A DNA stretch of 64,000 nucleotides, taken from positions 1 to 64,000 of the forward strand of contig CAXHJY010001554.1 in assembly GCA_964016885.1 (NCBI GenBank). Reading direction: 5' to 3'. Each line of letters opens with the position of its first letter. The first letter of the stretch is position 1. The notes under the pieces are model-generated. The model was not told the origin of the DNA, did no database searches, and saw only the letters and a program-made list of their open reading frames with translations. Positions 32,627 to 40,877 of the stretch are shown here, piece by piece. The position numbers and the translations under genes are program-made. This DNA is from Eledone cirrhosa (Eukaryota).

Positions 32627-33000
32627 TATATATATAAATATAGTAATAATATAATAAAATTGAAGACTAAAATCCAAAGAGGGCTCGATAAGGAAAATAT
32701 ATATCAAATATATAAGAACCGTAGAGCAAATATTTATTAAAATAACAGATTAAAGTTTAAGCAAAGAATCGCTCCTTTCACCCTTAACGGGATCTTCTGA
32801 AACTAACAAAGTCAATCTGTAAACGCAGAACTGGATATTTCAAAAAACGTTGCAACCGGAGGAAGACAGGAAGACGATACTTACGTTCGTGGTAACGTTC
32901 GCTGTCAAAGAACGGGAAAAAAACGAATAATACGTCATTAATAGGAGCGGTGAAAAACAATTACGCGCAAAGACAAAACCACGTTTATGGTATAAAAGAG

Positions 33001-33201
33001 GTCGTATGGGAGATCCTAGCTAGGGCTAGATCGTATAACGGAAATAAAAGACCATGTGACCTCTGTGCCGCTGAGGCCCTGGAAATACTCTACGCTACAG
33101 ACCACATCTTAAACAAAATATCTGAGGCAATTTCGGCTTGTAAACATAAATTGCACAAAACTTTCCTGTATTACAGCCCCACGTTATACCTTAACGGATA
33201 G
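33001..33201 (+). pseudogene. PLE GIY-YIG C-terminal fragment (family E)
   Basis: Same W...CxLC...LN...SxCxH pattern as families A and B. Confidence 0.8.
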
Positions 33202-34128
33202 CAAGATCTATACGTGGATATTTTACGTCTTGATGTGGGAGCTAAGTATATGTTTTGTTTATTCCTTTACGTATTTGCATAGGTAAGTATATAATACCCG
33301 TATGTTTTGTGAAGGTATGTATACCTTCTCGTACGTATATTTGACTGTTATAGCGTATAATTTTACATATTCTGGTATTTAGGGTTTGGCTATGTGTATA
33401 CGGGAGTTTTGCGTCCGTGTGAGTGTGCAGGTTCGTACGTATGGTGGGTGTGTGTATATGTGTACTTCTTGTTTTAGTTGACTTACGTCTCCGAACATTC
33501 GTGTATTTATATGTAGGTATGCGTGTGCGCTTGTTATATACGTATTTATTTACTTATATACGTTTATATAATTATTTATTTATTTGTACACAAACATACA
33601 CACGCACACATATTTATATGTGCGTGGTTTTGTATACCCATGGTAAGGTTTTGCGTATGCTTGTGTATGTACGTATCTGTTTGCGTGTATGTATTTATTT
33701 GTTCCTATTACTTCTGTATTGTATTTATTTACTTTGTTCTTAACTCTGTAGCGGAGATTCATTTGGTCTCCTAGTTAGAATTTTAGTCTACGATTTCTGA
33801 TATACCATTTACGTGGTTTTGTCTTTGCGTGCTATTGTTCTCCACGCTCCACATATGACTTATTATCTTCGTTTTTTCGTTCATTGCCAGAGAACGTCTC
33901 TATGCACCACTTAAGAGAACATTAGTCTACGACCTCTTTTATACCATAAACGTGGTTTTGTCTTTGCGCGTAATTGTTTTTCACCGCTCATATTAATGAC
34001 GTATTATTCGTTTTTTCCCGTTCTTTGCCAGCGAACGTTACCACGAACCAAAGTATCGTCTTCCTGTCTTCTTCCGGTTGCAACGTTTTTTGAAATATCC
34101 AGTTCTGCGTTTACAGATTGACTTTGTT

Positions 34129-34179
34129 AGTTTCAGAAGATCCCGTTAAGGGTGAAAGCAGCGATTCTTTGCATAAACT
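34129..34179 (+). ncRNA. Hammerhead-like motif with CAGAAGA core (family E; second copy at 32754-32804, minus)
   Basis: AGTTT-CAGAAGA-TCCC gttaa GGGT-GAAA-GCA..TGC-..-AAACT. Confidence 0.55.
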
Positions 34180-34230
34180 TTAATCTGTTATTTTAATAAA
34201 TATATATAAATATATATATATATAAATATA

Positions 34231-35129: not shown

Positions 35130-35174
<45 letters not shown>

Positions 35175-35656
35175 TAAATAGGTCTTAGGAGTTCTTGGTT
35201 AACGTAGGAGGTATTGTTTCGTTTTTAGAACGACCTTTCAGGCTGAGGTGCGCTTGTCAAACTGATGTGTATGTGGTGTGTCGTTCTATATATAGGGATT
35301 TAACATGTCTGTGGTGTGGTGGGGGTTTTTTCTCCCCCTTTTTAATAAGTGTATGGGTGTAGGTGTGTTGAAAACTGACAAGCGCATCTCAGCGTGAAAG
35401 GTCGTTCTAAAAACGAAACAATACCTCCTACGTTAACCAAGAACTCCTAAGACCTAACTTAATTTATAAAATAATTTTTTTTAAGAAAAACTTTTTTTTT
35501 CTAATCCGGAAAAAAATTCTTTTTGGATTTTGTGAAGAAAATAAATTTGTTGAAAGCACAAGTGAAGCCATTTTTTCTTCCCCCTGTCTTAATATACCTA
35601 ACTGTACCAAGGATTACACACATTTTCCAATATTCTATCCCCTTGTACAAGACAGA

Positions 35657-36871
35657 ATGGCTAACACACGTTCAAAATCCTCTACTGAATCCCTCAAATC
35701 GGATACACTACTACAGGAAATATCAGAAAAACTCACCATAATAATAGATAAATATGATTCCCTTACGAATGCCGTACAAGAAATGGAACAACAAACACGC
35801 AGCTATAGGGAAAAACTTGATTCACTAATTACAGACCGACAAAAACAAGAACAAACCTTTTCTCCTGAAATAGCTACACATGAACAGAACTCCATCACCA
35901 ATAATGCATTCAAAGAATGGAATGAACTGAATCTAGAAAAAGAAGCCTACAGAAAAAGAAACCAAATGAAAAACATTTGGAACCAACTATTAAATCAAAG
36001 GAAACAGGCATACTGGAAAGCCTTGAGGAGTGAAAACCTAGCAGACACATACGAAATATGGCGTAGCAAGGAACCAGTTATCCTCCCGAGAAAATTCCGA
36101 ATTAAAGAAATACCATCGGAATCAAAGGAAGAAACTGCAACAAGACTAAATCTAGCACTCCAAACACTTGAGACCGAAATCACCCTACTCCGCCTAAGAG
36201 TGCCAAAATTCAAAGAGAAATTTGAAAAATGCGACACCACCATACAAGAGGAAATAAACAAAAGAAGCAGCGGCAATGTACGTGAAAAACTCCTTAACCT
36301 ATGGCAGACAGATACAACTAGAGAGGAGTTAAAATATAAGAAAATCTTGGAGTCAAGAACTCAATGGCTTCAATAATATGAAGATAACTATGGGAAAGAC
36401 CAAATAAAACCCAGAAAACAAAACCATAGGAAACCCCAGAACTCAGGAAAATACAACAACACAAGAAATGAAGCACCCACACACAATAAACCAACAACAA
36501 CCAGATATTGGGTAACCCCAAACACACAACTACATACAGACCCAATACTCAACACCAGAACCAGATACAACCACTGCCATAACACCAAGAACAATTACCG
36601 GAGACAAAATCAAAGACACATGAATACTGAACGAAACAACAGAAGAACCAGACCCCCATACAGCAACGACCACGCAAGAGTCTATCGCCCAACCAGTTAC
36701 CGGCATGAAGTTCCGGCGGGCCAAAGGTTTCACCACAACAGAAACACCCCTATCCCAAATGGCACCCATTTTTTAGGACTAGGGGCCTCGCACCAAATGA
36801 AAGAAAAAAAGAAAAAAGCACCACCTTTCAAGTGGCACCTGACGAGGAAGAACCAATCGAACCAAAAATAA
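35657..36871 (+). CDS. PLE upstream ORF1 (helical/coiled-coil-like N-terminal half, N/R/T/H-rich C-terminal half); one premature TAA at 36374-36376
   Basis: ORFs 35657-36376 and 36620-36871 are in the same frame and the frame is open between them. Confidence 0.7.
36769..36847 (+). promoter_or_regulatory. Candidate -1 programmed ribosomal frameshift signal (U UUU UUA + downstream stem-loop)
   Basis: CAT TTT TTA GGA in the ORF1 frame; the -1 frame is open into IINISAKKLT..GLKFTPTP; pairings CCTCG/CGAGG, CCA/TGG and TGAAAG/CTTTCA. Confidence 0.65.
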
Positions 36872-39097
36872 TCAATATATCAGCCAAGAAATTAACACAA
36901 CCAGAAATACAACTGTTAGAAAATGGACTGAAGTTCACTCCCACTCCAAAAGCAGATACAGCCGACGTTATAAAAGACACAGAAGAATACTGTCGAAAAT
37001 TACGCTTAGGAGAATTTTCCAGGGTGTACAATACGAGGAAGAATCACTGGTGAAAAACAAAAAGAACTTCACACCCCCGCCAAATAGAGATAAATACCTG
37101 GAGGAATACATAACCTGCCTTCGCCGATCAGCACGTACAAATACGGCCGAGACGAAACACAAACGCAACATCCCTACAGACCAACTACTAGCATTGAACA
37201 AGCTACAAAGGGATTCCTCAATAATAATAAAAGAAGCGGACAAAGGTGAAGTAATCGTCATCATGGACAATAACCACTACAAAGATATGGTTCTAGCACA
37301 CTTGAATGACGAAAACTTCTACAGGAAAATCACTAAAAACGAAGAAAGGAAATCGAGGAACCAAATAGGCAAACTAACAACAAAGTACCAAAACAACCTA
37401 ACACCAAAAGAAATAGATTACCTAACCAACTTCGAAATGAAAACCAGCAATTTCTATGGATTACCAAAAATTCACAAATCCATAGAAATCCAAAACAACA
37501 TAAAAGGGAAAAATACATCATACATCGAAGCACCAAAACCGACAGACTTAAAATTACGCCCCATTATTGCTGGCCCAGCCTCAAGCACACAACGTCTTAG
37601 CAACCTATTAGACATCATACTCAAACCCCTATGTAAAAAAAGTTCCAAGCTACATCAGAGATGATATGGAATTCCTTAACTATATCCCCCAAAAAGTACA
37701 CCAGGATACAATCCTAGTCAGTTTTGATGTAATAAGCCTGTACACTAACATCCCACACGACCTAGGGATTGAAGCTGTGGACTTCTGGATTACAAAACAC
37801 TCAAGTCACATTTCAGAAAGATTCCCCAAAGAATTCATCTTGGAAGGACTTAAATTAGTATTGGAAAACAACCACTTCCTCTTTGACAACGAACTTTATC
37901 TACAAATAAAAGGAACAGCCATGGGTACCAAAGTGGCCCCTACATATGCAACGCTCGTTATGGGTCACTTAGAGGCAAAATTATATTCCCAACTACAGAT
38001 AACATTCAGTCACGACTTCGCCTTCTACATTAATAAAACTGGAAACGTTACCTAGATGACTGCTTCATCTTCTGGAACAGAAGCCAAACAGACCTACAAA
38101 AATTTTATTCGATCTTAAACAGGCTTCATGAAGCTATACAATTCACTATGGAATGTAACGAAAAGGAACTGCCCTTTCTAGATATCCTCATCATTAAAGA
38201 AGGGGAAAATATCATAACGGACCTATTTTGCAAACCCACTGACACACACCAAAACTTAAATTTCCGGTCAGCACACCCCTCACATACGAAAAGGAACATT
38301 CCCTTCAACGTGGCAAGGCGCATCTGCACTATAGCAACACACCCCGTACTACAAGAAAAAAGATTATGTGACCTGAAAAAATTCCTTAAAAAACAAGAAT
38401 ACCCGATGAAACTCATCAACGCAGACATCTCCAAGGCTAAGAACATCCCAATAACAACACTGAGAAAACCAAACCCACAACATAAAAAAGAAAACCCTGC
38501 TATCTCTTTTGTCATCACTCACAACCCAGGGAACATCAACATTGTGAAAACTGCTAAGCAGTATCTCCCGATTCTACAGCAATCTACCAAAATGAATGCA
38601 CTCTTAAAAACACACAGATAATTTATAGCAGACGCCAAGCACCCAACCTTAAAAAACTAATTACCAAGGCAAAATTTACGACCAACATGGAATCAATGCA
38701 AGTGACGAAATGCGGGGACCCTAGATGTGGAACCTGTGAACTCATCGAAGAGGGCAAACAGTTGTCCTTCAAAAACCATGATAATTTCAAGGTCAATGCA
38801 AACATGAACTGCAAAACGAAAAACCTAATATATTGCGCAACATGTCCACAGTGTAAAGAGTATTACATTGGGGAAACCGGAACGGGATTACATGATAGAG
38901 TCCGGGTACATAAACAACAAATTAAAGACCCCACAGTCAGAAATACCACATGTAGCGCACACTTTGCATCATGCGGGAAGGGAAAATTCACAATCTTCCC
39001 TTTCTTCAAGATATGGTCGGATAACGAACATTTCCGCAGATATAAAGAAGAATTCTTCATTGAAAAATTTAATCCACTACTGAACACGAAAAAATGA
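36772..39097 (+). pseudogene. Neptune-type PLE RT + CxxxxCxxC linker + GIY-YIG (about 4 small frameshifts)
   Basis: ADKG, FYGLPKIHK, LRPIIAG, SFDVISLYTNIP, QIKGTAMGT, RYLDD, LPFLD, KPTD, CGDPRCGTC, LIYCATCPQCKEYYIGET. Confidence 0.93.
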
Positions 39098-39179
39098 ATT
39101 AACACTCGGAGGTAGAATTCCATTTCACTACCACCCCCCTATCTTCTTATGTGTACACATGAATATCTGAGTGAACGGT

Positions 39180-39317
39180 GAGACACACACATATGTGTGT
39201 AGGTATGTATGGATGTATGTACGTGTGGGTATATATGTATGTGGGTGTGTGTATGTGTGTGTGTATATATATGTATGGATGTGTGTATATATATGTATGG
39301 ATGTGTGTATGTTTGTA

Positions 39318-39348
<31 letters not shown>

Positions 39349-39399
39349 GTGTGTATGTGTGTATATATATGTATATGTATGTATGTGTATGTTTGTGTA

Positions 39400-39431
<32 letters not shown>

Positions 39432-39640
39432 GATATATGTTTATGTGTGTGTGTATGTATATGTATGTATCTATATGTGTGTGTGTGTGTATGTATGTGC
39501 ATATATGTATATATGTGTGTACATATGTGTATGTTTCTGTATGTGTATATGTATGTATGTATGTAGATGTATGTATATATATGTATATATATATATATGT
39601 ATATATGTATGTATATATGTGTCTTTATGTGGTTGTGTGT

Positions 39641-39683
<43 letters not shown>

Positions 39684-39695
39684 CTTGTATGTGTA

Positions 39696-39728
<33 letters not shown>

Positions 39729-39832
39729 GTGTATATATATATATATAGATATATGTATGTGTATATGTATGTATATGTGTGTATGTGTCTGTATGTGTTT
39801 ATGTGTACATATATGTATGTATGTATATATGT

Positions 39833-39876
<44 letters not shown>

Positions 39877-40290
39877 ATGCCTCTCTCTCTCTATATATAT
39901 ATGTATATATATGTATGTGTGTATGTGTGTGTGTGTATGCATGTATGTGTGAACGGAGGTATATATACGGACATATGTATATATGTGTGTGTGTACACGT
40001 GTGTGTGTGTGTGTGTGTGTGTGGGGGGGGGGGGGGTATATATGTATATTTAGTTATGTATCTTTATGTATGTATATGTATGTATGTATATATATATATA
40101 CCCATGTGGAGGTATGAGTACATATTCGTGTGTGTACGTATGGGTATATGTGTTTTTGTATGTGTCTTTATGTTTTTGTGTATGTATGTGGATGTATATG
40201 TACATGGGTGTGTGATTGATGGTGTGTGCCTATATATTCCTACATATGCCCGTGTGTGTATGTACGTATATACGCACATATGTGTGTGTT
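39180..40290. repeat. (GT/TA) compound microsatellite inside the family C 3' UTR
   Basis: Read directly from the sequence. Confidence 0.9.
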
Positions 40291-40619
40291 GAACAAAGGA
40301 CTAATTTTGGGATGGACGTAGAAAAATTCTTCATAAAAAAATAATTGTTTACAAACTTGGCAGGTGCGATTTGCTTGTGACCATTCTCAACACAAAGGAA
40401 TCCCCTGAATAAAGGAATTTTTCGAGAATGACCGGGGCAGGCCACACTTGCTACATTTCTCCCCACCCACCCCTACTCACCGTCTCAACTCATTACTGCT
40501 ATTAACACTTTTTCAACACACCTACACCCATACACTTATTAAAAAGGGGGAGAAAAAACCCCACCACACCACAGACATGTTAAATCCCTATATATAGAAC
40601 GACACACCACATACACAAC

Positions 40620-40707
40620 AGTTTGACAAGCGCACCTCAGCGTGAAAGGTCGTTCTAAAAACGAAACAATACCTCCTACGTTAACCAAGAACTCCTAAGA
40701 CCTAACT
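40620..40707 (+). ncRNA. Hammerhead ribozyme, family C: U3:A8 core, extended stem III (other copies 35375-35459 plus, 35179-35263 minus)
   Basis: AGT-TTGACAA-GCGC acctca GCGT-GAA-AGGTC.GTTCT...AGAAC..GACCT-A-ACT; stem I is only 3 bp. Confidence 0.62.
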
Positions 40708-40877
40708 TAATTTATAAAATAATTTTTTTTAAGAAAAAAAATTTTTTTCTAATCCGGAAAAAGTTCTTTTGGGATTTTGTGAAGAAAATAAATTTGTTGA
40801 ACGTACAAGTGAAGCCATTTTTTCTTCCCCCCTGTCTAAATATACATATATATATAAATATATATATAAATATATAT

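Follow-up and report, generated by a model that had tools for sequence, protein, structure and literature searches.

Penelope-like elements (PLEs) are the sister group of telomerase reverse transcriptases (RTs), and among PLEs a frameshifted ORF1 is reported for the endonuclease-minus (EN-minus) Athena elements and Terminons. Canonical endonuclease-bearing (EN+) PLEs are described as single-ORF elements (PMC8557442, PMC4209133, PMC6515669, PMC3846280), and the legend of Fig. 1 in PMC8557442 notes that in some animal PLE type, the clade being unstated there, a frameshift with a pseudoknot may set ORF1 apart. The literature searched held no published slippery site in EN+ PLEs, although key papers by Arkhipova and Repbase, which may note one, lay outside its scope; the excerpts of PMC9004415 and PMC5718144 contain nothing on a frameshifted ORF1 in PLEs. 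Here we describe EN+ elements from Eledone cirrhosa in which two overlapping ORFs, rather than one, are found in both families analyzed (families 1 and 2).

The element in the window

The window (the whole stretch of DNA analyzed, 64,000 nt) holds a decayed copy of a young EN+, Neptune-type PLE, the features of which are collected in Table 1. Pieces of its RT-EN region match RVT_1 and GIY-YIG (PF01541, E 2.6e-7, above cutoff), the RT carries the PLE N-terminal motifs N[LI]S, GxKF, and DKG as well as YxDD, and the direct pseudo-LTRs, inverted 5' copy, and (TA)n flanks that are features of EN+ PLEs are all present. The linker joining RT and EN reads CGDPRCGTC in family 1, with CNDNRCGTC as its counterpart in family 2; according to the sections of PMC8557442 on these groups, a CX2-5CXXC linker is common to Neptune, Nematis, and Naiad, and Neptune is reported to be paraphyletic. 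Against an assignment to the EN-minus Athena or Coprina elements, an endonuclease is present and the flanks are (TA)n, not telomeric repeats. Rfam gave no hammerhead match in the window, its only matches being microsatellite-driven and below the gathering score; a canonical-looking CUGAxGA...GAAA hammerhead motif occurs twice in locus L033 and also in L051, and the family 1 core is degenerate.

Table 1. Features of the element, in window coordinates
Feature	Position	Strand	Remark
Inverted copy of pseudo-LTR, element 5' end	35167..35374	-	Adjoins a (TA)n tract; head-to-head arrangement also in L004, L006, L009, L013, and others
5' pseudo-LTR	35376..35596	+	Direct repeat of the 3' end; degenerate hammerhead-like core only
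ORF1, 404 codons	35657..36871	+	Long-helix domain aa 9-244; disordered R/N/Q-rich tail ending H-F-L + 31 residues
Premature TAA in ORF1	36374..36376	+	Private to the window copy; in 0/26 other covering copies
Slippery heptamer T_TTT_TTA	36769..36775	+	Phe-Leu in ORF1, Phe-Phe in the RT frame; kept in 28/29 other copies
Candidate stimulatory long-loop stem	36781..36840	+	Arms 36781-87 and 36834-40, 5 nt past the heptamer; marginal in family 1
ORF2, -1 frame	36769..39097	+	PLE N-terminal motifs, RT, CX4CXXC linker, GIY-YIG endonuclease
CX2-5CXXC linker motif CGDPRCGTC	38711..38737	+	Neptune/Nematis feature
TA/TG microsatellite-rich 3' region	39180..40290	+	Also in other copies (L041, L044, L049)
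3' pseudo-LTR, then (TA)n	40509..40838	+	Approximate limits

The original prediction had placed in this element an ORF1 of ~400 codons with one premature stop, a U_UUU_UUA heptamer in ORF1 phase at 36769-36775, and a -1 frame running open into the PLE N-terminus without an intervening ATG. We found the ORF1 frame to extend from an ATG at 35657 to a TAA at 36869-71, its 404 codons being interrupted by the single TAA at 36374-76. The sequence TTTTTTA occurs once in 35601-39200, at 36769-75, and there its phase relative to ORF1 is T_TTT_TTA. From 36709, the -1 frame runs without a stop through IINISAKKLT...GLKFTPTP, and it is free of ATG from 36769 to the first RT indel, the point up to which the last of these claims is borne out. 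Further on, ORF2 of the window copy is broken by indels near 37017, 37635, 38035, and 38606.

Contig depth over the pseudo-LTR (window 35376-35675) was 20,000-120,000 in public runs X1-X3, as against ~200-1,800 over the body of the element, which suggests very many solo pseudo-LTRs or short non-autonomous copies, depth not being a copy number. The window also contains, at 32896-33201 and 33777-34200, a 3' fragment of a different element together with repeats in both inverted and direct orientation; the short frame of this fragment terminates with the motifs C-x-L-C and KISEAISAC-x-H, an end that may resemble the Naiad type. Downstream of the element are two long inverted repeats, 41017-41371/41934-42288 (355 nt, 94%) and 43086-43363/43951-44228 (278 nt, 90%).

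Conservation of the ORF1/RT junction

A DNA search of the E. cirrhosa genome (3.0 Gb) returned 166 candidates, 40 of which scored 98-100%, and 30 loci were examined, window included. The T6A heptamer was kept in 28 of the 29 other family 1 copies, and 24 of the 29 were without an indel in 36700-36900, the five exceptions being at five different places. RT lay at -1 in 13 of the 17 family 1 copies that have an ATG anchor (window included), and six had an intact 404-aa ORF1. By comparison, the window's RT indels near 37017, 37635, and 38035 were absent from 29/29, 27/29, and 29/29 of the other copies, respectively. Since the heptamer is kept, whereas the stop and the RT indels in the window are confined, or almost confined, to that copy, the -1 offset is the state of family 1; the window copy is dead and its family is recent. 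A contig of public run X1 (kind not recorded; possibly the assembly's own source), which covers 36389-37133, has six T as well.

Two in-frame ORF1-RT-EN fusions occur in the genome, one at the single locus recorded as both L015 and L042 and the other at L041. In the first (L042:181-4047, G000 C3), a private indel gives a single open ORF1-RT-EN frame of 1289 codons (1289 aa), and in the second a 364-nt deletion spanning the junction gives one of 1096 codons. We considered both as master elements and rejected them because the indel in each is private to one copy.

Family 2 was found by searching the same genome with an oyster homolog, and ten copies were chosen from the matches without stops, so that the intact ORF1 seen there is partly a product of selection. 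All ten carry CAT_TTT_TTA_AC, nine have a 449-aa ORF1, and in seven both ORF1 and a 770-aa RT-EN frame are open at -1. Because these seven near-identical copies (0-5 differences in 3643 bases) are intact with the offset, the most recently moved form carries it. Identity between families 1 and 2 is 36% in the ORF1 core and 52% in RT-EN. The check that had been proposed for the family, of the heptamer, the -1 offset, and an intact ORF1, therefore gave the heptamer and the offset as the majority state in two families of this genome, with seven intact copies in the younger one, family 2; a consensus with ORF1 and RT in one frame, which would have reduced the offset to a copy-specific indel, was not found, the offset being the family state.

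With ORF1 as a query, five homologs were found that are 34-56% identical to it, and in each of them FL lies close to the end of a tail that could not be aligned. An ORF1 profile gave 784 clusters at E<=0.001, the best 150 of which were listed, and 90 of the 154 proteins collected were 320-500 aa long. Among these 90 full-length homologs, FL occurred within the last 60 aa in 79 (shuffles: mean 8.0 +/- 2.6, maximum 16) and in the preceding 60 aa in eight; the query profile included FL and may favour FL-bearing matches, its scores being driven by the helical core. Loci in other genomes were collected by RT query, the ORF1 alignment being too divergent for a contig scan, and few of the resulting 128 loci have this ORF1. 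In all six with both an ORF1 match and an RT start, the heptamer was in phase (T_TTT_TTA in five and T_TTT_TTG in one), and the -1 overlap was intact in five, the sixth, L057, being decayed. The non-canonical heptamer U_UUU_UUG is found in L126 and L071. On a quick RT tree (36 rows, no named references, L057 left out), a branch with SH-aLRT 99 set apart the foreign ORF1 loci and families 1 and 2 together with L071, which on inspection has T_TTT_TTG at -1. Judged by the cross-family counts, the junction layout exceeds chance. Fifty-four PLE RT loci (L125-L178) were in bacterial genome bins, most likely as contamination from host animals.

Other PLEs in the collection have other junctions. A separate EN+ group (L098, L100, L102, L104-L106, L108, L111, L114, L117, and L119, which form one record set, plus L131) has a different upstream ORF of 360-430 aa, again at -1, with a G_GGU_UUY heptamer; in the L098-L119 set, the ORF1 stop comes within 2-4 codons, with a short stem of the GGAC...GUC type after it. 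Since the RT of this group is sister to single-ORF elements, its layout arose again or was lost. In L068, L072, L073, and L075, upstream ORFs of 460-715 aa have a stop overlapping or abutting an ATG (ATGA type), which suggests stop-restart coupling as a possible arrangement. L120 (941-2869) has a 643-aa upstream ORF that is unrelated to the ORF1 of the window and ends in H-F-L plus ten codons over T_TTT_TTA, with RT at -1; it contains a GDSN motif, presumably that of a GDSL/SGNH esterase (no Pfam match). Esterases are mentioned in Neptune-like PLEs in a passage of PMC5408684.

Expression of the overlapping frames

The conserved junction is very likely a programmed -1 frameshift. We consider it highly probable that, where ORF1 and RT-EN overlap at the conserved U_UUU_UUA, a minority of ribosomes would slip by -1 and make an ORF1-RT-EN fusion while most make ORF1 alone. 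The tRNAs for Phe and Leu would slip in tandem on the heptamer, a long-loop stem that begins 4-8 nt downstream probably assisting, and the predicted product is a fusion of ~1,130-1,200 aa in low proportion. The gag-pol-like expression originally proposed for a Neptune-type element is supported by layout and conservation, the frameshifting itself being inferred from the sequence.

A heptamer followed by a spacer of 5-9 nt, the canonical arrangement of -1 programmed frameshifting in the pertinent part of PMC7618472, is matched here. A stem with its 5' arm 4-8 nt past the heptamer had a negative z against shuffles in nine of ten junctions (combined z -5.5, the junctions not all being independent) and was among the best 5% of flanking positions in six of the ten; this test was exploratory, having been designed after the folds were seen, and is without demonstrated compensatory changes. 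The candidate in family 1 pairs 36781-87 with 36834-40 and is a perfect six-pair stem in the subfamily copy L048; no downstream stem was predicted in family 2 (z +0.2), and the window's own downstream fold was not significant. The stem-loop at 36786-36847 that had been predicted does form in folds of the window (-14.9 to -16.3 kcal/mol), but its z is only -1.5 and one of its outer pairs uses G36847, which is private (in 0/29 other copies); it was rejected as a structure of the family, and the long-loop stem is the better candidate.

The ORF1 stop lies exactly ten codons past FL in 24 of the 79 homologs and sooner than nine codons in none. As a label on the quick tree, the ten-codon stop required nine changes, six of them forced by strong branches, as against 20.8 in shuffles; the spacing thus appears to be partly inherited, yet it is found across deep branches. 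In DNA, real stops ten codons past FL are present in L057, L071, and L120, and the other distances are one codon in L055, 31 in family 1, and 23 in family 2. Ten codons correspond to about one ribosome footprint. We hypothesize that a ribosome terminating at the ten-codon stop could act as a roadblock, the alternative being a conserved RNA structure that includes the stop; published work exists on collisions and frameshifting, and the fixed distance hints at a possibly unusual stimulation of frameshifting.

The rival that survives best, albeit with a slight probability, is that TTTTTTAG is a 3' splice acceptor and that, once an intron in the ORF1 tail or in the 5' leader is removed, the RT frame continues an upstream exon. 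Introns are described in PLEs in part of PMC8557442, and the ORF1 tail looks neutral. An AG directly follows the heptamer in family 1, L051, L052, L055, L057, L058, and L120, that is, in most DNA junctions, but not in family 2, L126, or L071, where the slippery phase is kept; similarly, an AG after FL is possible in 60 of the 79 homologs, while in the other 19 the next residue cannot begin with G. An alternative AG|G does exist in family 2 and L126, 7 and 13 nt further downstream, and it keeps the RT phase. However, FL is kept in 79/90 homologs, although tail length varies freely and a splice acceptor would place no constraint on the ORF1 phase of the T-run. Of nine ORF1 stretches put through a crude donor scan, one had a phase-compatible donor, and the second PLE group has G_GGU_UUU and then stops at once. 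Contigs of four runs (kind unrecorded, apparently genomic) had four low-depth skips, none of which ends at the AG, and are uninformative on splicing. On these sequence grounds, splicing at the AG after the heptamer is unlikely.

Two further rivals are each somewhat less probable again. Polymerase slippage on the T run could add one U to some transcripts and so put ORF1 and RT in frame, and T7 variants are indeed present in DNA, at low depth in X2 and X3 (12-17 of ~1000) and in copy L044. The run, however, is only six T, and slippage by polymerase would need neither the T_TTT_TT(A/G) phase, nor the spacer of 4-8 nt and stem, nor the G_GGU_UUU of the second group.

Equally improbable is that ORF2 is translated separately, by re-initiation or from an internal or non-AUG start, with FL kept only as a motif of the ORF1 protein. 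The stop-start (ATGA-type) junctions of L068, L072, L073, and L075 indicate that PLEs can couple ORFs by means other than frameshifting, but FL is always coded by a T-run and RT is always left at -1. Moreover, the first Met of the RT frame is past the N[LIM]S motif in all eight junctions and lies 165 (family 1), 138 (L126), and 177 (L057) codons beyond the heptamer, that is, beyond the conserved motifs. The best 120 of 471 RT homologs were 517-817 aa long and none was fused (lengths to 1357 were allowed), and predicted RT starts were scattered among homologs. ORF2 thus has no start codon of its own. Finally, a copy-specific indel in a single long ORF has next to no probability as the source of the offset, since each of the two in-frame fusions that might recommend it is private to one copy, and the -1 offset is found both in most copies and in family 2, which is young and intact.

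ORF1 and comparison with known systems

AlphaFold2 (91 sequences) modeled ORF1 as helices at 9-63, 77-137, 157-203, and 206-244, followed by a disordered tail, with pLDDT 85-98 over ~80-250. No capsid, Zn-knuckle, or RRM fold was recognizable in this model of long helices and disorder, and neither a Pfam family nor a specific fold match was found for ORF1: Pfam searches of 91 ORF1 members gave five single-member matches and no family, Foldseek found nothing at E<=0.001 in PDB (with a first, lower-confidence model) or BFVD, the best ESM Atlas score of 0.77 is a lead at most, and the best VIA-align Z (9.3) was to unrelated helical bundles. Residues 1-250 are under purifying selection. Between subfamilies 1a and 1b, third codon positions account for 44 of 74 differences in the core (40 codons synonymous, 26 non-synonymous), whereas the tail is without codon-position bias (22/20/22). 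When the ORF1 profile was compared with upstream ORFs and N-terminal extensions from other PLEs, no match reached significance (best P 0.022); that best, weak alignment, of P-R-K-F in ORF1 with the P-K-G-L region of in-frame N-terminal extensions in single-ORF PLEs, hints that ORF1 may be a detached N-terminal domain. Solely from its position, long helices, and basic disordered tail, we infer that ORF1 might coat the element RNA or serve as its chaperone, in the manner of gag or LINE ORF1p, in which case the ORF1 part of the fusion would bring RT-EN into the ORF1-RNA particle.

If frameshifting operates as proposed, the real enzyme of these EN+ PLEs would be an ORF1-RT-EN fusion, produced in a set proportion to a structural protein, and constructs or annotations starting from the first RT methionine would be truncated. 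The ORF1 family is one without a Pfam model, and the naturally intact, near-identical copies of family 2 make the frameshift question directly testable. A broader proposal, rather unlikely to hold in all its parts together, is that gag-pol-style -1 frameshifting operates in a widespread EN+ PLE clade (784 ORF1-like protein clusters) whose ORF1 belongs to no known family, that frameshifted or stop-start layouts arose more than once among EN+ PLEs by detachment of an N-terminal helical domain, and that in about one third of the clade, where the stop is exactly ten codons past the slip site, a terminating ribosome could be a roadblock that sets off slipping and so replaces the pseudoknot. The mechanism would be classical; within the literature searched, no description of the carrier clade, the ORF1 family, or the stop spacing was apparent.

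With HIV-1 gag-pol, the element shares the heptamer U_UUU_UUA, a spacer in the usual range, and a structural gene placed before a polymerase in the -1 frame; the HIV-1 stem, however, is highly stable and capped by a tetraloop, whereas here there is a weak long-loop stem or none (PMC7618472, in the part on this site). The description "HIV-like" in the original prediction consequently suits the heptamer and not the downstream structure, and, unlike HIV-1, the element has no protease, and its ORF1 shows no recognizable gag fold or Zn knuckle. Like the Chlamys elements, it is an EN+ PLE with an extra upstream ORF, but those elements belong to the green lineage and have an N-terminal endonuclease and a gag-like Zn knuckle or an unrelated ORF, and the supplement rows of PMC8557442 leave a programmed frameshift unstated for them. 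As in the PLE types with a frameshifted ORF1, so far as these are outlined in the source, a helical or coiled-coil ORF1 lies upstream of RT with a frameshift between; unlike them, the element keeps its endonuclease and sits in microsatellites inside chromosomes, with no pseudoknot evident. From canonical EN+, Neptune-type PLEs, the clade described here differs by its conserved ORF1 of ~400 aa, which is separate, and by an RT frame that lacks its own start.
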